A stretch of 64,000 nt of DNA from Enterobacteria phage KhF1. The notes under the pieces are model-generated. The model saw nothing but the letters and a program-made list of their open reading frames with translations, did no database searches and had not been told where the DNA came from. Both the position numbers and the translations under genes were made by a program. The stretch is from the sequence record KT184313.1. The stretch is one strand, 5' to 3'. Shown one piece after another: positions 1 through 16,650 of the stretch (the first letter of the stretch is position 1; each line of letters starts with the position of its first letter).

Positions 1-150
1 AAAAAAAATTTNAAAAATTTTTTNGGAAAAACNNGNAANNAAAGGGTATGCNCACGNCNCCCAAAAAANANAACNAAAANAAAAAATTTTTTTTANANCC
101 CGCNAAAATTTTTTTTNTTTGTTTTTGGGGGAGGGGGGGAGTAAGAGGGG
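1..150. other. Low-quality / ambiguous sequence (N calls, homopolymer runs) at window start
   Basis: Multiple N characters and poly-A/T/G runs; ORFs here translate with X residues. Confidence 0.6.
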
Positions 151-179
151 GAGAGGGGTTGGGCTGGCTGTCTATAAAA

Positions 180-362
180 ACCTACCTGCACAATTCTAAA
201 ATGATTTTTCTTGCCCGACCTGAGCGGGGTCTGCACGTTTTGAAAATGAAAAAGCTCTTTGGAGATTACCTGCACAGTTTGAAAATGAATTTTCTCTTTG
301 GAGTTCAAAATTCTCTCTACAGATTTCTCTACAGAGATATACCTGCACAATTCTGAAATGAA
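180..362. repeat. Cluster of short direct repeats (ACCTGCACA-N-TT-N-T-N-AAAATGA units, about 4 copies; TCTTTGGAG x2; TTCTCTACAGA x2)
   Basis: Repeated near-identical 20-nt units at about 184-204, 232-252, 268-290, 338-360; non-coding, downstream of the 435-1220 gene. Confidence 0.5.
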
Positions 363-434
363 AAAGCCCTCCTTACCTGAAAAATTTACCAGATAAGAAA
401 GGCTTAGTCTATTGTGAATATCCTACGAAGTTTC

Positions 435-1220
435 TTAGCTCTTTGCGTCTAAGAAGGTAACTTCTGGCGAAGAGAAAACTGTCTCTATATCCTCATCAGT
501 TCTTGCATAGATGTAAGTATCTGCATCACTGCCAAATGTTACTGCAATCCTGTGATTGCTCTTCGACAGGTGGGTAACTAGAGCGTTACTTAGAGACATC
601 TTTTCAACCGGAGGGTTACTTTGATGTATCTTACCTTTTCTTCGTCTGAAGAGGGTAACTGCATTATCCGTGAACACAACTACACCTGCAAAGTATTCTG
701 GTTCACAGTAGTTCTTCCAACCTGAGCGTAACTTGTGGTACATCTCTCCTTCATAGACATATAGATAAACATCTACACTCTTCATCACCTGATTAATGAT
801 AACTGTGACGGCTTGAGGGTCTAGCCCACCGATACCTGCACCAATCATAGGTAACCCGACTTTCTTCAACTGATTGACTTCACAGTATCTGTTAAGCTGT
901 TTCAAAGATGACTCTAAAGCACTGTATCGGGCATCTTTACCAGTCTTAAGCTGAGTGTAAAGGTTAGCTATACGACCTTGTTTTAAACGTGCTACAGAGA
1001 AATTACCCAGTAAATTTTCACAGGGTTTGTGTCCTATACCACCTGCATATAGATAAACTTCTGTATCGGTCTCATATGCTTTTGGGTAAAGTTTAGAAAT
1101 CTTGTCAGCGATACCTGCACCCATTAAATTCATACAGTTGCAACCGTGACCGATGATGTCAAACTTACCTTTATCAAATGCGGCAAAGATATCACCATTG
1201 ATTATTTTTACAATACCCAT
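435..1220 (-). CDS. Macro-domain (ADP-ribose binding/processing) protein with about 110-aa C-terminal extension of unknown function
   Basis: N-terminal IINGDIF...DIIGHGCNCMNLMGAGIA resembles macro-domain Gly-rich ADP-ribose-binding motif; 261 aa. Confidence 0.6.
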   Translation of the reverse strand: MGIVKIINGDIFAAFDKGKFDIIGHGCNCMNLMGAGIADKISKLYPKAYETDTEVYLYAGGIGHKPCENLLGNFSVARLKQGRIANLYTQLKTGKDARYSALESSLKQLNRYCEVNQLKKVGLPMIGAGIGGLDPQAVTVIINQVMKSVDVYLYVYEGEMYHKLRSGWKNYCEPEYFAGVVVFTDNAVTLFRRRKGKIHQSNPPVEKMSLSNALVTHLSKSNHRIAVTFGSDADTYIYARTDEDIETVFSSPEVTFLDAKS

Positions 1221-1421
1221 TTAACATCTCTCCCAAGATTCTTTATCTTCTGAAGGTTTTACACGTTGCCCCTCATGGTCTACCCAGATACATCCACAAC
1301 CTTCACAGATTACTGGCATTGCATAACCAGCTTTAAAGTCATCTTCAGTGATAAGACCTTTTAAGTCACCTGTATCACGTCCAAACATTTCTATAGAACA
1401 GTCTTTGCAGAAGTCAGCCAT
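1221..1421 (-). CDS. Small Cys-rich (CxxC...CxGCGC) putative zinc-binding protein
   Basis: ORF 1221-1511, probable start at internal Met (MADFCKDC); two Cys pairs. Confidence 0.35.
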   Translation of the reverse strand: MADFCKDCSIEMFGRDTGDLKGLITEDDFKAGYAMPVICEGCGCIWVDHEGQRVKPSEDKESWERC

Positions 1422-1641
1422 TGATAATTGCCTCTTGAATGATGATACCTTTACCACAACGGCTTTTAAAGTCTTCCAATGGTTGGGAGATGAAGCCACG
1501 CAAGCAATCACTAAATACTAAGTTTTTCCTGTAGGCTATCACATCGTTTGCTGTAAACGGGATGACTTCATTTCTTCCAATGAATACTGCTGACCGGATG
1601 AGTTTCCGTGTCTTTTTATCTCTGGCTAGAATTACTCTCAT
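1414..1641 (-). CDS. Hypothetical protein (75 aa)
   Basis: ORF tightly packed between neighbours in leftward block. Confidence 0.3.
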   Translation of the reverse strand: MRVILARDKKTRKLIRSAVFIGRNEVIPFTANDVIAYRKNLVFSDCLRGFISQPLEDFKSRCGKGIIIQEAIING

Positions 1642-1942
1642 AATTTACCTTCTCAGTTAGCTCATATAAATCAACATGCTCAATACTATCAATGTTGATA
1701 TCAATCTTTTTGAAGCGTTCTATCACTTCGTTGTCAGTCATCCATATCAGACACCAATGATTCTGAATGGATTCTTCAAGAAGGTCAACACAATCTTTAA
1801 AAGTTTTTGTATCACTTCTCGTTCCAACTACTGCGATTGTTCCATATAGCCACCCACCATTGCCATAAGATACTTGCGCTACGCCAACTTCTTTACCTTT
1901 CTCGTAGTAAACGGCTACAAAGTCTCTTCCATTAATCTGCAT
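1616..1942 (-). CDS. Hypothetical protein (108 aa)
   Basis: ORF in co-oriented tightly packed block. Confidence 0.4.
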   Translation of the reverse strand: MQINGRDFVAVYYEKGKEVGVAQVSYGNGGWLYGTIAVVGTRSDTKTFKDCVDLLEESIQNHWCLIWMTDNEVIERFKKIDINIDSIEHVDLYELTEKVNYESNSSQR

Positions 1943-1944
1943 AG

Positions 1945-2217
1945 TTACTTCCTCGTTTTGAGAACTGCTAAGATTTCTTTAGAGTCTGGTAAGAACCATG
2001 TGTAGTGATTCTCTTTGATTTCTGGATGAGTGTCAACCTTTATTTTGCACTCTTTACCAACATGCTTAAGCTGTGCTGTGATACCTTGCATAAAGATGTG
2101 ACACATTACATTATCCATAATCGTAGGTAAGAAATCAATCCTCATGTAAGTATCTTTCGGTCTCGGTAGAAGTAAGTAACCTTCTGTGTAGAAAGTTTCA
2201 TCATTACTTTGTGTCAT
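1945..2217 (-). CDS. Hypothetical protein (90 aa)
   Basis: ORF abuts neighbours with 2-nt gap. Confidence 0.4.
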   Translation of the reverse strand: MTQSNDETFYTEGYLLLPRPKDTYMRIDFLPTIMDNVMCHIFMQGITAQLKHVGKECKIKVDTHPEIKENHYTWFLPDSKEILAVLKTRK

Positions 2218-2483
2218 TACTGCTTATTCCCTAATAAAATCATATCAATAAGGTTATTAGCTTTGATTGTGCACTGGTAAAATCCATCACGATAGAACTC
2301 AAGGGCTGCTGCCACATCACTACCAGTATTACCTTTGATAGTAAATCTTGAATCTTCTTGAGTGTACTTATCACTCTCACTTACTTGGGAGTTTTTGAAT
2401 GTACTGTTCACTTTGTTCGTTGAACACCCTGACATAATTATCAGTAACACAAACATTATAAAACTCTGGCTTAGTTTTTTCAT
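2217..2483 (-). CDS. Lipoprotein; candidate o-spanin (Rz1-like)
   Basis: Signal peptide with lipobox IMSGC; start embedded in a different frame inside the 3' part of the upstream membrane-protein gene. Confidence 0.4.
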   Translation of the reverse strand: MKKLSQSFIMFVLLIIMSGCSTNKVNSTFKNSQVSESDKYTQEDSRFTIKGNTGSDVAAALEFYRDGFYQCTIKANNLIDMILLGNKQ

Positions 2484-2724
2484 ACGTTAGTACCTCTTTT
2501 GTGTGCTTATTCTTAGCAAGCACATCTTTCAAATCATTTTTGTAATTGGTGCTGAGTGTGGCTAAACCTTCCTGATAAGCATCTTTGGCAACACTTATTA
2601 GTTTCTCATTATTTAGCTCAGTTTCAGCAACTTGGTAGTCTCTGTAAGAGTATCCTCCCCAGACACCTGTCCCAACTAAGAAAACAATTATGAAAGTAGC
2701 TTGACAGAACTCTTTAAATGTCAT
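2377..2724 (-). CDS. Membrane protein with N-terminal TM helix; candidate i-spanin (Rz-like)
   Basis: N-terminal hydrophobic segment ATFIIVFLVGTGVWGGY followed by charged periplasmic region; overlapped by lipoprotein gene. Confidence 0.4.
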   Translation of the reverse strand: MTFKEFCQATFIIVFLVGTGVWGGYSYRDYQVAETELNNEKLISVAKDAYQEGLATLSTNYKNDLKDVLAKNKHTKEVLTYEKTKPEFYNVCVTDNYVRVFNEQSEQYIQKLPSK

Positions 2725-2743
2725 TTAACAATCTCCTGAAATG

Positions 2744-2766
2744 AAAAAGGCTCCCGAAGGAGCCTG
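2744..2766 (-). terminator. Intrinsic terminator (GGCTCC-TTCG-GGAGCC + U-run on minus strand)
   Basis: GC stem 2749-2754/2759-2764 with tetraloop; T-run on minus strand (A-run 2744-2748 on plus). Confidence 0.6.
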
Positions 2767-2776
2767 TATCTTAACC

Positions 2777-3256
2777 TTAACCGAGGACTTTAGCAAGGAT
2801 ATTCGCAGCCATCGAAGAAGCTTTTGCAGCAGCAACTACGCCAGCTTTGACAGTGCTATCCTTAATAGCAGATACCGTTGCAGCATCAGTAAAGAGATAA
2901 GTGATTGTTTTGGAACCACTTGTAAAGGAAAGCATAAGGGTAGTTTCCAGATTGAAAGAGCGATACGGAGCACCTTCTTTAACGATACCTTCAGCACCTA
3001 ACTCTGAAGCCTTACCCATATCATAGATAGTCATCAGGTTTTCTTTGTGTGCAGTCGTTGAACCAACACCTTTTACGTGCTTCTTAACGTTCAACAATGC
3101 ACGATATTCACGAATGCTGCCATCAGCTTTTACATTAACAGCACGGAAAATTTTACCTTCAAAGTTACCTTGAATCATTTTACGAACTACTTCAGATTTG
3201 TTTGCCGTATCGTCCAGTGCTACCGTAATGATATTGTTCATAAGTTCTTCTCTCAA
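2777..3256 (-). CDS. Hypothetical protein (159 aa)
   Basis: ORF followed by intrinsic terminator. Confidence 0.45.
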   Translation of the reverse strand: MREELMNNIITVALDDTANKSEVVRKMIQGNFEGKIFRAVNVKADGSIREYRALLNVKKHVKGVGSTTAHKENLMTIYDMGKASELGAEGIVKEGAPYRSFNLETTLMLSFTSGSKTITYLFTDAATVSAIKDSTVKAGVVAAAKASSMAANILAKVLG

Positions 3257-3948
3257 TGTTTAACTAACATGGTTTTAATGTGTGGAAGGATTCTGTTTAC
3301 CTTCTGAACATTCTTCTCTGTATCTTCTATAAAGCATACTATATTAAAGTAAGGAAGAATGCAAGACTGAATCATCCTCACTTTCAAACTTTCTGCACTT
3401 ATAGAGTTAGTTCCAAAACCACGCATAAAAAGCAAGTAATCATGCTCTATATTGTGCCTTAAAAACATCTCAGTAGGTATTCTCTGAGATTCACCTCTTG
3501 CTGTCAAGAGTCCAACTGCTGCATGATTTGCAATTGCATCAATAATGTTGAAAACATATGTTGGTTTTGCTCTTACAGAATCAAGAAGATTAGTGTACTG
3601 TGAGAATGACCCATCAGTCAATTCCGTTGAGCAATCTTCGTGATTAAAATTTGTAAGAACACCATCAATATCTGCTAAGATGAGGTTACCTTTTTCTACA
3701 AGGTCTTTATTGACTATCACTAAGCTATCACGCCTTACACCTATAGTTTGTCCAGTCTCTTTGTCCACAACGTTCACAATGGGTTCTGATGTGTGGAACT
3801 CTTCAAGTGAACATACAACCTCTCTTGCAGTGTCTTCAAAATCTCTGCACTGTTCTGGAGTCCATACACAGGAATCAAGACCTAACTCATGAGGATGCAA
3901 GTCATAAGCGTGGCACAGGACTTCATCAGACTTTCTTAATTTTTTCAT
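3253..3948 (-). CDS. HAD-like hydrolase/phosphatase (possible nucleotidase) with N-terminal extension
   Basis: ILADIDGVLTN matches HAD motif I (DxDx[TV][LV]) but lies about 95 aa from N-terminus; 231 aa. Confidence 0.4.
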   Translation of the reverse strand: MKKLRKSDEVLCHAYDLHPHELGLDSCVWTPEQCRDFEDTAREVVCSLEEFHTSEPIVNVVDKETGQTIGVRRDSLVIVNKDLVEKGNLILADIDGVLTNFNHEDCSTELTDGSFSQYTNLLDSVRAKPTYVFNIIDAIANHAAVGLLTARGESQRIPTEMFLRHNIEHDYLLFMRGFGTNSISAESLKVRMIQSCILPYFNIVCFIEDTEKNVQKVNRILPHIKTMLVKH

Positions 3949-8705: not shown

Positions 8706-10487
8706 TTAAAGCTGCTTGTCAATATTATTTCGAATATCACCAAGCGTTGTGTAACCGAACTGCTCAGAGTCGCTAAAGACTAAACGTAAAGCACAAGCTG
8801 GATGTTCAAGTACATCTGCAAAGCTCTGGAATCCATAGCCATCTACAGCTTTCAACTTATCACCATCCCACATAGGTGCTACACCACCAAAAGCAGACTT
8901 CTTAACACCACTATCTGTTTTAGGGTCTTTTGCAAGCATAATCTCTTTACCACCAATGCTTGCAAGAGTTGCTTTAACAGCAAATGCAAAGGTGTCACGA
9001 GTCATGTACTGGTAAGTGTAAGAGCCTACGCCAAACACTACGTTAGAGCTTGCAAAACCCATTTCATACAGACGCTTCAGGATTTCGTTTGCACGTTCCA
9101 GCGTGATAGAGTCGCCATAGATAAGGCCAATGTGCTCATCCAGTACCTTAAAACCTTTAGAGTTAATAGTTCCTCCAAAGATGTTGTACAGTGTCTTAAT
9201 AGCTCCATCAATCTCAGCTACAGGACGTGTTACAACGTTTGCAGAACCAACCATATAAGCGTTTTTCAACAGCACTGTATCAGCAACTTCAAAGTCTTCT
9301 CTGTCAACAACCATTTCGTAGCCTTCTGACAGTAGCCATCCAGCAATACCATAATTGATGTTTTCAAGCTTCATGTTCAGAACAGCATTCAACATTGTGT
9401 CGCTGGCTTCCAGCTTGCTAAGGTGCTCATAATAAGCCTTTTTAGCACACTCTAAGTGGATTGCTTTATAACCTGTGACAATATGTACAGGGTCTCCAGA
9501 GTCAGGACGAATTACCAGTTTACCGTCACGTCCCATAATCTCTTTGCGAAGTGCTGGTAAGATTTCTGACACAGTTCTCCAGAAGTTATAAGTGTCTGAA
9601 ACAATACTTGCAATACCAGTCGGGTAAGTCTCTGTTAAGAAGCGACGGAAGGTTTGCAACTCACCTTTGAAGCGTCTTTCTTCTTCAATCAATTCATTAC
9701 CACCTTCCCAAGCAATGTTTGCACACATTACAGAGTGTTCAGTGGCTGGTACAGAACCACCAATATCAGAGATTGGGTAAGACTGCCCGTAGATGCGTTT
9801 AGCTGTATATACAGCAGGGAAGCTATCAGTTCCTTTAAAGCTGGTTAAGTGGCCTACAGCATTAAATGCGTCATCAGTAAAGCCGGACATACCACGCATA
9901 GCAAAGTCATGGCACTGATAAGGTAAATGTAAGTCATTGTCACAAGTAAGGTCAGCCCACTTCTTACAGATACGTTTGTAGTGCAATGCAATAGTTGCGA
10001 TGGTACAAGCCTTCCAAATCTCAGCAGAGAAAGCATCTTCCAGATACCCTGCTACCCAATGGAAACCTGAAACAGTGTTCTGGAAGACAACCATTGGGAC
10101 ACGCATAGGGACAACTGTACCTTCTTCTACAGCGTATACTTCAACTGGCAGATAACCCAAGTCGTGAAGTGCTTCCCAATGCTCTCGACCGATAGCATCT
10201 TTACCCAGAACACCATTCATGACTTCTAAGATTTCGTCAATTGCTTCTTTTTTATCACGTTCAAAGAAGGTGGCATTCCAATGGTCTATCAAGTAATCTT
10301 TAACAAAACGTTGAATACCAAAAGCCACTACACCGTCAATTGCCAAAGGGCTGTTAAACCATTTGTCGCTACGTGGTGTCAGGTTGAACATCAAATATTC
10401 TGTTGCACTAGGGTACTGGTAAACATGACCAGATTTGTAAGCATCTGCGTTTAAACCTGCTGGTACTGCATAAAGTGATTTAGTCAT
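8706..10487 (-). CDS. Nicotinamide phosphoribosyltransferase family enzyme (NadV/NAMPT-like; possibly Namat-type)
   Basis: Matches NAMPT blocks: DAYKSGH, HDFAMRGMSG, FKGTDS, PATEHS, VSDTYN, IRPDSGDP, NSKGFKVL...YGDS, VFGVGS; 593 aa with about 80-aa insertion. Confidence 0.85.
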   Translation of the reverse strand: MTKSLYAVPAGLNADAYKSGHVYQYPSATEYLMFNLTPRSDKWFNSPLAIDGVVAFGIQRFVKDYLIDHWNATFFERDKKEAIDEILEVMNGVLGKDAIGREHWEALHDLGYLPVEVYAVEEGTVVPMRVPMVVFQNTVSGFHWVAGYLEDAFSAEIWKACTIATIALHYKRICKKWADLTCDNDLHLPYQCHDFAMRGMSGFTDDAFNAVGHLTSFKGTDSFPAVYTAKRIYGQSYPISDIGGSVPATEHSVMCANIAWEGGNELIEEERRFKGELQTFRRFLTETYPTGIASIVSDTYNFWRTVSEILPALRKEIMGRDGKLVIRPDSGDPVHIVTGYKAIHLECAKKAYYEHLSKLEASDTMLNAVLNMKLENINYGIAGWLLSEGYEMVVDREDFEVADTVLLKNAYMVGSANVVTRPVAEIDGAIKTLYNIFGGTINSKGFKVLDEHIGLIYGDSITLERANEILKRLYEMGFASSNVVFGVGSYTYQYMTRDTFAFAVKATLASIGGKEIMLAKDPKTDSGVKKSAFGGVAPMWDGDKLKAVDGYGFQSFADVLEHPACALRLVFSDSEQFGYTTLGDIRNNIDKQL

Positions 10488-10532
10488 CTTTTAATCTCTC
10501 TCAAAATGGGGCTTTCAATCCCCTATAAACTT

Positions 10533-11429
10533 TCAATCAAGGTTTGCTACAGTAACTTGACTATAATGTGTTAAGCCACGGTCTTTAGCTTCGCCTAAAG
10601 AGTTTGTAGTGTAAATATGGTCGATACCGTTGTCAAGAAGGTTTTCAACACCTTTAGAGAAGATACCATGTGTTACATAAAGCTCAACACGTTTTGCACC
10701 TGCTTCACGTAGGTGTTTAGCTGCCTCTACGAAGGTTCGACCACCATCACAGATATCATCAAGAATCATGACGGTTTTATCGGTCAAATCAACATCGTCA
10801 AGGATTCGCATACCAGTGATTTCTCCAGTCTTAAGATTTCGCACCTTAGACATTGTGATATATGGTTTATCCACCTCTTTAGCAGTCTCTGCAATCTTCT
10901 TAGAAGCACCTGCATCTGGGGCTACTAAGTAATCAATTAGAGGGTCATTTGCATAGTGGACTGCAATCTCCTTTTGAGGAATACTCTGGAAGCAGTTAAA
11001 CAGGTTATCTGGTACATAGCTGTGAGGGTCAACTGCACAGACTGCGCCAAACCCCATTGCATTAATCTGTTTAGCAAAAACCTTTAAAGCTGCTGCGTCG
11101 CCTTTAAACATGTGACGGTCATAACGTGCATTTGGTAAGTAGTAAAAGATGACAGTCTTTAAAGCATAATCATGAGGAATTAAATCATCAATTGCTTCTT
11201 TAGCAAGTGCCACAGCAAACAATGTATCCTTATCATAACCTTTTACAATCATAATCACATTGTTGATGGATGATGCTGCATAAGCAGTGAAATCAACAAA
11301 CTCTGGCGAAAAGTGTCCACCAATCTCACCAGAAGGAAATTGGATGATGTTAAACTCTTCTTCATGAGTTCCTTTAGTTGGTGAATGAACTGTAACACGG
11401 ATAGATGTTTTCATAGTTTTCTCTCTCAA
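10533..11429 (-). CDS. Ribose-phosphate pyrophosphokinase family enzyme (Prs-like; possibly Adps-type ADP-ribose pyrophosphokinase)
   Basis: PRPP-binding loop VMILDDICDGGRTF; NARYDR ribose-phosphate loop; C-terminal KRVELYVTHGIFS; 298 aa. Confidence 0.8.
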   Translation of the reverse strand: MREKTMKTSIRVTVHSPTKGTHEEEFNIIQFPSGEIGGHFSPEFVDFTAYAASSINNVIMIVKGYDKDTLFAVALAKEAIDDLIPHDYALKTVIFYYLPNARYDRHMFKGDAAALKVFAKQINAMGFGAVCAVDPHSYVPDNLFNCFQSIPQKEIAVHYANDPLIDYLVAPDAGASKKIAETAKEVDKPYITMSKVRNLKTGEITGMRILDDVDLTDKTVMILDDICDGGRTFVEAAKHLREAGAKRVELYVTHGIFSKGVENLLDNGIDHIYTTNSLGEAKDRGLTHYSQVTVANLD

Positions 11430-12968: not shown

Positions 12969-13454
12969 TTACTCGGCTCGCCACTGACAATCACCTTGCC
13001 ACCCATACTCTTTTCTCCAGAGGTTTTGGTTATCAGAACCACGATACGGTTTAACTGTTGGTTTAGATGAATCATACTTACCATCAATCACCACGTCAAC
13101 ATATTTCATTACATCTAGGTGAATTTTTTCGTGTAACTGAAAACCTGTCCAGAGCCAGATAGACTTCTCTGGGTAAACAGTTTTAATACGTTTACATATA
13201 TTGGTAACCTCTTGAATATTTCTATCATCCAGAGGTTCTCCACCAAGTATTGACAACCCACTGACAGCATCGTCACCCATTAACTGGATGATTCCATATA
13301 GGTTTGCATAAGTGAACACTTTACCAGCATTAAACTTCCAAGACTCCCTGTTAAAGCAGCCTTCGCAGTGATGCTTACAACCAGCTACGAAGAGGCTTAC
13401 ACGAACCCCTTCACCATTAGCTGTGTCAAATGGTCGAATCTCCATGTAATTCAT
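12969..13454 (-). CDS. nrdG: Anaerobic ribonucleotide reductase activating protein (radical SAM)
   Basis: CKHHCEGC radical-SAM-type Cys cluster near N-terminus; 161 aa; near nrdD. Confidence 0.7.
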   Translation of the reverse strand: MNYMEIRPFDTANGEGVRVSLFVAGCKHHCEGCFNRESWKFNAGKVFTYANLYGIIQLMGDDAVSGLSILGGEPLDDRNIQEVTNICKRIKTVYPEKSIWLWTGFQLHEKIHLDVMKYVDVVIDGKYDSSKPTVKPYRGSDNQNLWRKEYGWQGDCQWRAE

Positions 13455-13463
13455 CTAGTTACC

Positions 13464-13763
13464 TCACCAATACATATAAGTGTTCTTAGCGGCTTTCTTT
13501 GGAGACTTGCTATCAATGTCAAAGTCTTCATCTAAGAAGGATGTCTTAGAAAGCTGCCTGATTTGTGTTCTTGTAAGACGTTTAGTAGCCTTCTTAATCT
13601 CCCTACAAGGTTGACTTGTAAAGTCATAAGAGCCACCTTTTCTGGACATCATATCAGAGTGGTAGTAGACCTCTGAAGCATTTTCTCTGTTACGTACCTC
13701 ATTTCTCCACTCATAAAGTCCATGAACGTTCTTTAAACCTTTTCTTCGAATTGTTTTACTCAT
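13464..13763 (-). CDS. Hypothetical protein (99 aa)
   Basis: ATGA start/stop overlap with upstream gene. Confidence 0.4.
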   Translation of the reverse strand: MSKTIRRKGLKNVHGLYEWRNEVRNRENASEVYYHSDMMSRKGGSYDFTSQPCREIKKATKRLTRTQIRQLSKTSFLDEDFDIDSKSPKKAAKNTYMYW

Positions 13764-14155
13764 TCAAACACCACCTGACAAGGAACCTGTTTAGTAATAA
13801 ATTCTTCACAGTGCTCTTTAATGAAGTTTTGTAATGGTACACAATCTTGTGCGCAAGTCATTAGCATAATGTACTCTGGATTCATGATGTTTTCAAGACT
13901 GTAGAAGACAACATCATCAGATAGTTCGTGACCATCTTCTTCAGACCAAGTTCCAGTGACTACAGCTAATTTGTCAAGCAATTCATTAGGCAATGCTACA
14001 CCATCTTCTACAGAATCACTTAGAACATTGTCGCCGATATACAATGTGAAGACCGTGTGGAATGTTGAGTATCTTACGTGATTCTTTTCACAAGAGCCAC
14101 ACTCTGAGGCATAATCTTTAATCCACTCTAACTGTTTTTGGCTCAACTTAATCAT
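13760..14155 (-). CDS. Hypothetical protein (131 aa)
   Basis: Start/stop overlaps with neighbours on both sides. Confidence 0.4.
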   Translation of the reverse strand: MIKLSQKQLEWIKDYASECGSCEKNHVRYSTFHTVFTLYIGDNVLSDSVEDGVALPNELLDKLAVVTGTWSEEDGHELSDDVVFYSLENIMNPEYIMLMTCAQDCVPLQNFIKEHCEEFITKQVPCQVVFE

Positions 14156-14352
14156 AATTTCACCTTAGTTGGTAATGCACTGAATGCTATGACTAACCCT
14201 AAAAATGGTTTGAAGCATGACCATAAATCCATCTGACCATGATATGAGAAACTCCATTGTGGGTCTGAAAAACCCCATACCATAACACTAACCCCAAAGA
14301 AGAAGACTAGAATATGGAGTATGTATATCAACGCTTTTGATATCTTAAACAT
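14152..14352 (-). CDS. Small membrane protein (66 aa)
   Basis: Hydrophobic segment ILHILVFFFGVSVMVWGF. Confidence 0.35.
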   Translation of the reverse strand: MFKISKALIYILHILVFFFGVSVMVWGFSDPQWSFSYHGQMDLWSCFKPFLGLVIAFSALPTKVKL

Positions 14353-14505
14353 TTTAACTTACCTTTCAATTCACAATAAGAGAGTCCTAAAAAGAACCCT
14401 AGTAAGACAGAACCTATGAACAACCCAATAATACTCTCTGCCATATCTAACATCCAATAAAAAGGTGATGTAAGCCTAACAAGACTCACACCACCATGTC
14501 AAGTT

Positions 14506-16650
14506 TTACATAGAAACTCTGTCACGAATCTCAGCGATTTTTGCATCGTTCATTCGGGATTCACCTTTAATCTTAGTCCATCCAAGATACCCACACACCC
14601 TGTTAATCACAGAGATATCATGTGAGTGACAAACTTCACATTCTTCAACATCAGCCTTTGGCCTGTTACCACAATGTTCACAGATTGCTAAGTCAAAGTT
14701 AAGTCCCTGATAGAAACCTTTCAACATTCCTCTTGTAATACAACTTTTAAGTGCTGATAAGTTTTCTGGATTAGCTACCCTTACATACTGGATTCTTCCG
14801 CCTCTACAGATATGGAAGAAGGGTTCTTCTAAGTCCTGCTTCTCAAATGGTGTAATATCTGCTGCAACATTCATATGGAAACTGTTTGTAAAGTATTCCT
14901 TATCAGAAACACCTTTGATAACCCCAAACATATCTCTGAACTGTTTTAGTTGAGTTCCGCAAAGTGATTCTGCTGGAGTACCATAGACGGCATATAAGAA
15001 GCCATCTTCATTTTTAAACTCTTCGGTTTTCATGTTGATGTATGCCAGAACATCATATGCAAAACTATAGCTTCCAACTTCATGAAGTCGTTTACCTTCA
15101 GCAAGAACAGACAACTCATCAAGCGCAGTAACACCAAAAGAAGCTGTGAAGGACTTCACAATATCCCAACCAACCCTGTCAGTAGGCTTCTTAGTTCCTT
15201 TATACAGACCACCTTGTGTAAATGCAAGAGGGTTAGAACTTGCTGGCATATTAGCAATCATTTCGTAACGTTTCTTGTGGAAGCTGCGAATCATTTCTAG
15301 GTACTTATCAAGCTCTTTCCAGAAGTCTAAACCATTCTCTTTAGAATACTGGTAAATCATTGGTAAGTTCAAAGATACAGCACCAATGTTAGCACGACCA
15401 ACGTAGAACTCTTCCCCATTCTCGTTAAGATACGGAGATAAGAACGCTCGGCAACCCATCGGTGAAATTACCTTGCCAGAACGCTCAAAAGCCTCTGCTA
15501 CAGCACCATGACCAGATACACTTAAGAAATCTGGATACATTGCTTTAGAGCAACACTCAATAGCTTTACTGTACAGGTGGCCTTGACAGATATTCTCATT
15601 GTGTCTCTTCTGGTCATAAATATAAACCAGTTTAGGGAATACAACAGGTTTCTTACTCTTACCTTGACCATTCATACGAACATCTAGGAGAGTACTTGCA
15701 ATCATATATTGCAGTCGGTTATCTTCATTGGACATATCTGAGTCAAGTAACCCGAATGTCAAAGTTGTGAATGCAAAATCACCACGGCTACAAGGCACGG
15801 TATTTAGTTTCATCTCAAGTGACTGAAAACCTTGAGTCAGTTCAATTTGTAACTGCTCCATTACATAATTGTGGTAATGCTCTTTAGGAATACCATAAGA
15901 TGATGCTTTCTCAGCATGATAGCGTAGAGACTTCTTAGCATACGGTACAAGTACCTTATCAATCTCTGCTAAAGTAAAACCACCAAATTGCTGTGCAGTT
16001 GCTGAAAGTACTACGTCACCAATAACCTGTAAGGCCGACAGCACAGACTTTGGTTCACAATATTCGATGCCAGACATTTCAAAGCCACCTTTCAGGACTT
16101 TGCCAATGTCAAACAGGCAACAGTTGATACCACCAAAAATTAGGTCTCTTAAATCATGGATATAGATAAATCCTTTTTCAATGGCTTCAAGTTCCTCTGG
16201 TGTTAAATGGTACTGTTTAAAGATTTCTTTAGTCAGGTAACCACGAATAATTGAACCTTTTGTAGAAATTAAACTGCTGTCAAAATTAGCGTTTTCTCGG
16301 TCGCCTAAGAAAAGTGTATCTTTGGTCTTCTGGTAGAGTTCATCCCAATTTTGAGCAACTTCTTTACGGTAATTTCTATATGTTGAGTAAGACTCATAAA
16401 TCTCGTGATTGACTTCTGCCAAAGCACCCTCAACAATACTGTGAATATCATTTACAGAAATTAGCAAATTATTCTGCTTAGTGGACTTTACCAGAATCCT
16501 CATAAATGCTGACTCAAGAGCTTGAGTAACATCTGGTGGAAGCTCTTTATAACCAACTCTGTTAGCTGACTTTGTGACTGCTGCTAAAACTTTTTTGATA
16601 TCAGGTTCTTCAAGTGAGCCATTCTTTTTAATAATCTGTACTTTGTTCAT
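14506..16650 (-). CDS. nrdD: Anaerobic ribonucleoside-triphosphate reductase (class III)
   Basis: N-terminal ATP-cone; C-terminal zinc ribbon CEHCGN...CEVCH and glycyl-radical motif RVCGYLG; 714 aa. Confidence 0.9.
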   Translation of the reverse strand: MNKVQIIKKNGSLEEPDIKKVLAAVTKSANRVGYKELPPDVTQALESAFMRILVKSTKQNNLLISVNDIHSIVEGALAEVNHEIYESYSTYRNYRKEVAQNWDELYQKTKDTLFLGDRENANFDSSLISTKGSIIRGYLTKEIFKQYHLTPEELEAIEKGFIYIHDLRDLIFGGINCCLFDIGKVLKGGFEMSGIEYCEPKSVLSALQVIGDVVLSATAQQFGGFTLAEIDKVLVPYAKKSLRYHAEKASSYGIPKEHYHNYVMEQLQIELTQGFQSLEMKLNTVPCSRGDFAFTTLTFGLLDSDMSNEDNRLQYMIASTLLDVRMNGQGKSKKPVVFPKLVYIYDQKRHNENICQGHLYSKAIECCSKAMYPDFLSVSGHGAVAEAFERSGKVISPMGCRAFLSPYLNENGEEFYVGRANIGAVSLNLPMIYQYSKENGLDFWKELDKYLEMIRSFHKKRYEMIANMPASSNPLAFTQGGLYKGTKKPTDRVGWDIVKSFTASFGVTALDELSVLAEGKRLHEVGSYSFAYDVLAYINMKTEEFKNEDGFLYAVYGTPAESLCGTQLKQFRDMFGVIKGVSDKEYFTNSFHMNVAADITPFEKQDLEEPFFHICRGGRIQYVRVANPENLSALKSCITRGMLKGFYQGLNFDLAICEHCGNRPKADVEECEVCHSHDISVINRVCGYLGWTKIKGESRMNDAKIAEIRDRVSM

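Follow-up and report, generated by a model that had tools for sequence, protein, structure and literature searches.

A two-domain macrodomain protein of a Felix O1-like phage, a candidate AdfM-type anti-DarT2 enzyme with a lineage-specific C-terminal domain

The phage proteins most informative for the protein described here are Tk.4 of phage T4 and gp104 of phage PhiKZ, both of which have been studied in relation to the bacterial DarTG2 system. The tk.4 gene is the single T4 gene that is conditionally required on a DarTG2 host, and its clean knockout is DarTG2-sensitive; it was renamed adfM in a 2025 preprint, and the evidence in T4 is genetic (10.1101/2025.11.20.689424). In vitro, the PhiKZ protein, also named AdfM, clears DNA of the ADP-ribose that DarT2 has attached; in cells it relieves the toxicity of DarT2, and the N23A substitution impairs it (PMC13309987). 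Among bacterial proteins, the DarG2 antitoxins possess a C-terminal DarT-binding domain (PMC5179494; PMC11481870; PMC11825919). Lysine K80 of TaqDarG is the equivalent of K84 in human TARG1, and these are key catalytic residues of the two enzymes (PMC5179494). A second solution is known from SCO6735 of S. coelicolor, which has Gln85 at the K80/K84-equivalent position and removes ADP-ribose linked to thymidine in DNA; either Q85A or Q85E abolishes its activity, and a water-activation mechanism has been proposed (PMC9411070). Macrodomains of the DarG/TARG1 class are known to act on several kinds of substrate (PMC9503650; PMC9411070).

We have analysed a stretch of 64,000 nucleotides from Enterobacteria phage KhF1 (KT184313.1), referred to below as the window, which belongs to a Felixounavirus (Ounavirinae, Felix O1-like myovirus). 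It encodes a protein that joins a macrodomain of the Tk.4/AdfM type to a C-terminal domain restricted, as far as sequence comparison reaches, to the Felixounavirus-like lineage.

Gene, locus and neighbouring features

The ORF list places the macro protein at 435..1220 on the minus strand, as an ATG-initiated open reading frame of 261 amino acids that is coded from 1220 down to 438 and ends with a stop codon at 435-437. A previous sequence-only reading of this DNA had marked 435-1220 with the strand unstated, and that interval coincides exactly with the minus-strand ORF and its stop; the motif that it quoted, GDIF...IIGHGCNCMNLMGAGIA, spans residues 9-38. Two domains make up the protein, an N-terminal macrodomain of residues 1-155 (756..1220, minus strand) and a C-terminal domain of residues 156-261 (438..755, minus strand), and PHROG 335, annotated as 'phosphatase', spans both of them (E=1e-113). 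Its orthologue in Felix O1/FO1a is gp13, and related genomes label the protein either 'phosphatase' or 'macro domain protein'. Over positions 300-3300, the window shares about 100% identity with Enterobacteria phage KhF2, and its identity to more than 200 phages of Escherichia, Salmonella and Shigella is 90-99%; full-length matches, covering at least 80% of the protein, occur in 257 phage records.

The macro gene is the last of a leftward cluster that comprises rIIA, rIIB, an SLT-like gene, a PNK/HAD-like gene, spanins and several small ORFs, with the polynucleotide kinase/phosphatase gene about 2 kb upstream of it. Its position in a cluster adjacent to rIIA and rIIB suggests that it lies in an early region. 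A terminator scan finds an intrinsic-terminator-like hairpin with a T-run at 364..405 on the minus strand, about 30 nt 3' of the macro stop codon. This hairpin closes the leftward transcription unit, and a Rho-independent terminator is annotated at the same site in KhF2. Immediately upstream on the same strand, 1221..1424 encodes a probable zinc ribbon of 66 aa that contains two CxxC pairs. Because the TAA stop of this ORF directly abuts the ATG of the macro gene, the two genes are probably translationally coupled. The CxxC...CxxC mini-protein keeps this position upstream of the macro gene in Felixounavirus, Suspvirus and Mooglevirus, and it may be a functional partner of the macro protein. 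At the locus of a distant homologue (L003, 7810-8001) a 63-aa CxxC...CxxC ORF overlaps the macro start, but homology between the two mini-proteins was not significant by BLASTP.

Other features of the window were recorded in passing. Just beyond the terminator of the macro gene, a non-coding stretch at 186-361 on the plus strand holds an iteron-like cluster of four copies of a motif of about 19 nt, CTGCAC-R-N-TT-Y-K-R-AAATGA, which start at 186, 231, 270 and 343. The motif is found nowhere else in the 64-kb window, where no copies are expected by chance, and the cluster could represent protein-binding sites for regulation or a replication origin. The first 170 positions are low-quality sequence with many N and long A/T/G runs, and the ORFs there (48..356 and others) are not credible. 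The sequence-only reading had also placed an NAD+ module about 8 kb from the macro gene. It is present on the same strand at a distance of about 7.5-10 kb, where 8706-11429 (minus strand) encodes a Nampt-like protein of 593 aa with NAPRTase and NAMPT_N domains (8706..10487) and a ribose-phosphate pyrophosphokinase-like protein, Prs, of 298 aa (10533..11429). In a related RefSeq genome, a small 'NAD synthetase' and a MazG-like pyrophosphatase are annotated further along, and together with Nampt and Prs these genes resemble a NARP2-type NAD+ reconstitution set. Further on, at 12969-16650 (minus strand), lie an anaerobic ribonucleotide reductase, NrdD (714 aa), and its radical-SAM activase (161 aa), genes that are ordinary in Felix O1-like phages.

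Macrodomain fold, family and active site

That the N-terminal part carries a macro-domain signature had been proposed from the letters alone, with the macro fold and the Gly-rich ADP-ribose-binding loop named as the points on which the proposal hung. Both are present. The Pfam Macro profile (PF01661) matches residues 25-141 with 32.3 bits against a cut-off of 22 (E=1e-7), over profile positions 2-117 of 118. An AF2 model built from 19 family members is confident (pLDDT 85, pTM 0.86) and displays the α/β/α macro fold with Gly-rich ADP-ribose-binding loops, and both of these loops (M33-A38 and I126-G132) are invariant across the family. HMM and structure searches, which the sequence-only reading had recommended for subtyping the domain, assign it to the DarG/TARG1-like class. 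When the family profile was compared with the PDB, it matched TARG1 (3.7e-11), Mtb DarG (3.5e-9) and Taq DarG (1.5e-7); TARG1 is the best sequence-level PDB relative of the macro protein, and DarG and TARG1 rank ahead of yeast Poa1p among the structural and profile matches. The sole NCBIfam and PADLOC matches are to DarG and concern the macro part only. The DarG equivalog NF048014 reaches 47.8 bits against a cut-off of 250 and aligns over profile positions 4-153 of 338, and the PADLOC DarG model aligns over positions 18-146 of 329. We also considered whether the macro gene could be the antitoxin to an adjacent phage toxin, and rejected this, as none of nine neighbouring ORFs matches any PADLOC model; the gene sits in a phage gene cluster and is not paired with a DarT toxin gene.

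Relationship to Tk.4 is clear. BLASTP aligns the macro protein with residues 2-152 of the 155 residues of Tk.4 at 35% identity (E 3e-24), the motifs HGCNC, MGxG(I/V)A and NLYTQ are common to the two proteins, and the family HMM gives T4-like Tk.4 a score of 108 bits. By tblastn, the N-terminal domain alone is found in about 2,500 phage genomes, including T4-like phages in which the gene is annotated as tk.4. In the alignment with PhiKZ AdfM, the residue N23 of that protein falls on the invariant N28 of the macro protein.

The main departure from DarG and TARG1 lies in the active site. The last residue of the invariant NLYTQ motif, Gln90, occupies the column of the catalytic lysine, whether the protein is aligned to TARG1 by HMMER or to PhiKZ AdfM and TARG1 together by MAFFT, and the DarG/TARG1 catalytic lysine is absent from the macro protein at this aligned column. 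The Lys84/Asp125 dyad of TARG1 is likewise absent, K84 being replaced by Q90 and D125 by G131 in the ungapped HMMER alignment. Q90 is invariant in the 19 family members, and the glutamine of NLYTQ is likewise found in T4 Tk.4 and in an Erwinia-phage orthologue. Because the catalytic lysine position is held by an invariant glutamine, a covalent lysine mechanism of the TARG1/DarG kind appears unlikely. By analogy with SCO6735, the chemistry is probably water-activated and Gln-dependent, although the SCO6735 structure (PDB 5e3b) is only a marginal match to the macro protein (E 0.51). On the basis of these alignments, we assign the Tk.4/Felix O1 clade to the DarG/TARG1-like class as a Gln-type member, not as a DarG equivalog. 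We consider it very likely that the macrodomain is an active ADP-ribosyl hydrolase of this class.

The lineage-specific C-terminal domain

The AF2 model of the C-terminal domain begins with a linker helix (residues 158-167), continues with about six β-strands and closes with a short helix. Its confidence is about 85 in the full-length context and 77 when the domain is modelled alone; this difference, together with the pTM of the whole protein, suggests that the domain packs against the macrodomain in the predicted structure. The sequence-only reading had recognised no motif in the last 110 or so residues, and this still holds after exhaustive searches. The domain has no match in Pfam, NCBIfam or PADLOC. 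A PH-like fold was considered, and the Pfam PH profile matches only weakly (E 0.04-0.1) in two of 16 members. A search of BFVD returned only a member of its own family. When 1.84 billion representatives were searched exhaustively with an HMMER profile, the C-domain family and its fragments were recovered, with spurious repeat proteins as the other matches. Among the latter, the giant proteins P0033, P0034 and P0037-39 were rejected, since tandem repeats (retroelement, YDG/MBG adhesin, sortilin, and Kelch and PQQ β-propeller repeats) inflate their summed scores and many unrelated Pfams match them also. A word index of 5.8 billion proteins gave no candidates for the C-domain alone, a search that is uninformative. 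Thus, at least at the sensitivity of HMMER, the C-domain is not found alone or in other architectures.

Although without known relatives, the domain is conserved as part of the protein. The two-domain architecture is kept in metagenomic relatives of 32-46% overall identity, which also retain the rIIA-rIIB...PNK...macro synteny. Sequence change in the tail runs at 2-3 times the rate in the macrodomain, such that macrodomains that are 45% identical are accompanied by tails about 18% identical, and P174, G179 and Y236 are the only invariant or nearly invariant tail residues. Pairwise Nei-Gojobori estimates of dN/dS for the macrodomain are 0-0.11 within the genus and 0.12-0.24 between genera; those for the tail are 0.05-0.25 and 0.23-0.61, respectively, with saturated dS in the comparisons between genera. 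Both domains are therefore under purifying selection. Pervasive positive selection on the C-domain is not supported, as dN/dS is below 1 throughout in these pairwise, not site-specific, estimates. Because it is kept in the 257 phage records with a within-genus dN/dS of 0.05-0.25, the C-domain is functional. A nucleic-acid-binding or ssDNA-mimic role was also considered from its charge and rejected: the isoelectric point ranges from 4.6 to 9.5 across the family with no consistent signal, which speaks against any conserved surface for DNA binding or DNA mimicry.

In other Ounavirinae, sequence comparison indicates that the tail is replaced by an unrelated one. The orthologues in Kolesnikvirus (Erwinia phages) have a strongly conserved macrodomain, with 170 bits to the family HMM, followed by a tail of about 100 aa, and homology between the Felixounavirus-type and Kolesnikvirus-type tails was rejected, hmmsearch finding nothing and hhalign giving a probability below 0.1%. 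This second orphan tail on the same enzyme head is seen in Erwinia phage vEam_W_25 (L006, 2498-3280) and in P0040-P0043; it possesses conserved motifs of its own (ISKQF, PRYT, SKLP, TNK and IIP) and has no Pfam match. A further variant is the metagenomic protein P0026 (339 aa), whose macrodomain belongs to the same clade and is followed by a C-terminal cREC_REC domain, a cyclic-phosphate-processing receiver; this fusion hints that some members of the clade act on cyclic-phosphate ADPr derivatives.

Candidate function and comparison with known systems

The sequence-only reading had raised the possibility that the protein reverses DarT-type DNA ADP-ribosylation, and the literature assigns such a role to the closest characterised homologues, Tk.4 and PhiKZ AdfM. 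We lean towards the same role here, that of an AdfM-type anti-defence enzyme directed against DarT2, because of the homology with Tk.4, the DarTG2 data on Tk.4 and PhiKZ AdfM, and the precedent of an active-site glutamine in SCO6735. The fold, the motifs, the homology, the conservation and the purifying selection are shown by the analysis, while the substrate, the anti-DarTG2 role and every role discussed for the C-domain are inferred. The macro protein would be expressed early, given its placement in the rIIA/rIIB cluster. During infection, the host DarT2 of a DarTG2 abortive-infection system would put ADP-ribose on thymidine bases of single-stranded phage DNA; the N-terminal macrodomain would bind the thymidine-attached ADP-ribose and hydrolyse the base-ribose bond, so that replication could be restored. 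The β-rich C-terminal domain of about 100 aa, confined to Felixounavirus-like phages, would serve as an accessory module that mediates a protein contact, either by binding or occluding DarT in the manner of DarG's own unrelated C-terminal domain or by docking on a phage or host partner. A protein-contact module is our best guess by analogy, while any specific role for the tail is at most an unlikely one. Counting against the anti-DarT2 role, identity to Tk.4 is only 35%, a level at which the substrate specificity of macrodomains can shift, the DarG equivalog cut-off is failed and the catalytic lysine of DarG and TARG1 is missing.

The main rival, which we regard as unlikely, is that the macrodomain acts on soluble ADP-ribose derivatives and disposes of what RNA repair or NAD+ consumption leaves behind, either as an ADP-ribose-1''-phosphate phosphatase of the Poa1p kind or as a related hydrolase; its products might feed Nampt and Prs, and the C-domain would add specificity for a substrate or partner. 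Such a function would suit the 'phosphatase' label, which goes back to the A1pp motif in a note to the T4 record, the structural similarity to Poa1p and the presence of the Nampt and Prs genes 7.5-10 kb away. The same-clade fusion in P0026 is of interest here, as the predicted substrate of cREC_REC is 1''-2'' cyclic ADPr phosphate (PMC9503650). Taken with the upstream PNK gene, a PNK/HAD-type neighbour that is conserved even in distant relatives, this fusion points to RNA-repair by-products such as ADPR-1''-phosphate as substrates. However, the sole functional data for the clade, those on T4 Tk.4, indicate DarTG2 counter-defence, DarG and TARG1, which hydrolyse ADP-ribose on DNA or protein, match better than Poa1p, and no Tpt1/KptA-type enzyme that would generate ADPR>P is among the annotated genes of the related genome.

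Somewhat less probable still is that the macrodomain strips ADP-ribose from protein or RNA modified by a host ADP-ribosyltransferase defence or toxin, or by a phage transferase, and that the C-domain recruits it to the target. TARG1, the best PDB relative at the sequence level, is a protein-Glu/Asp ADPr hydrolase, the class is known to accept several kinds of substrate, and a tail that evolves fast and can be swapped would suit a module that recognises a variable macromolecular partner. On the other hand, the Lys/Asp dyad of TARG1 is absent, with Q90 at the lysine position, no ART gene is annotated beside the macro gene or in those related genomes that were inspected, and the characterised phage homologues counter the DNA modification made by DarT2. 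A non-catalytic function, either as a binder or sponge of ADP-ribose-containing immune signals (Thoeris His-ADPR, gcADPR) or as a catalytically weak sensor with an oligomerising C-domain, would agree with the missing lysine but is highly improbable, since the residues that related enzymes need for hydrolysis, N28 and the Q90 shared with SCO6735, are invariant, the nearest neighbours by structure are active hydrolases and oligomerisation is without support.

Returning to the anti-DarT2 role, we speculate that the Ounavirinae macro protein is a two-pronged mimic of DarG, in which the C-domain is a new and fast-evolving toxin-recognition module and the genera swap tails to suit the toxins of their hosts. 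The macrodomain would erase the DNA modification, and the non-homologous C-domain would bind and block the host DarT2 or another ADP-ribosyltransferase; Felixounavirus, Suspvirus and Mooglevirus on the one side and Kolesnikvirus on the other would have taken up unrelated tails to match the toxins of their hosts. We offer this extension as a long shot.

The macrodomain itself is of a known kind, and the protein family is already in databases under its two labels. What is modestly new is the combination, in the Felix O1 lineage, of an AdfM head with a tail that is constrained, orphan and lineage-specific. If the anti-DarT2 role is true, Felix O1-like phages carry a built-in counter to DarTG2. 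Since such phages are in wide use for the biocontrol and typing of Salmonella and E. coli, this would matter for predicting host range and for engineering phages. The architecture is the more interesting point, as a conserved 'eraser' head with interchangeable, lineage-specific tails echoes the two-domain logic of the bacterial antitoxin DarG and offers a tractable case of how phage anti-defence enzymes gain specificity or targeting modules. In addition, the widespread 'phosphatase' label in databases is corrected, since it derives only from the old A1pp motif annotation.

Compared with known systems, the macro protein differs from each in one or more respects. Human TARG1/OARD1 and yeast Poa1p are both single-domain proteins; the K84/D125 dyad of the former is not conserved here, and similarity to the latter lies mainly in the N-terminal motif region. 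SCO6735, an ALC1-like macrodomain hydrolase, shares the glutamine where DarG and TARG1 have the catalytic lysine, but it is a bacterial housekeeping or stress-response enzyme without a C-terminal domain of this kind. The bacterial DarG2 antitoxin does have a C-terminal domain, for binding DarT, and toxin neutralisation by this domain has been demonstrated with DarG K80A, but it is unrelated to the domain described here. PhiKZ gp104 AdfM, a DarG2-like antitoxin of a chimallivirus, is a phage macrodomain of the same DarG-like class with the conserved asparagine and the GGLD loop; in contrast to the macro protein, to which it is about 23% identical, it keeps the catalytic lysine (in FPTK) and is a single domain that is imported into the phage nucleus. 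T4 Tk.4, at 155 aa, consists of the macrodomain alone and lacks the extra C-terminal domain of about 106 aa, and D134 in the GGLD motif of the macro protein is not conserved in it. Nevertheless, the two proteins have homologous macrodomains with shared motifs and a glutamine at the catalytic lysine position, and both are encoded in non-structural clusters beside small genes of unknown function.
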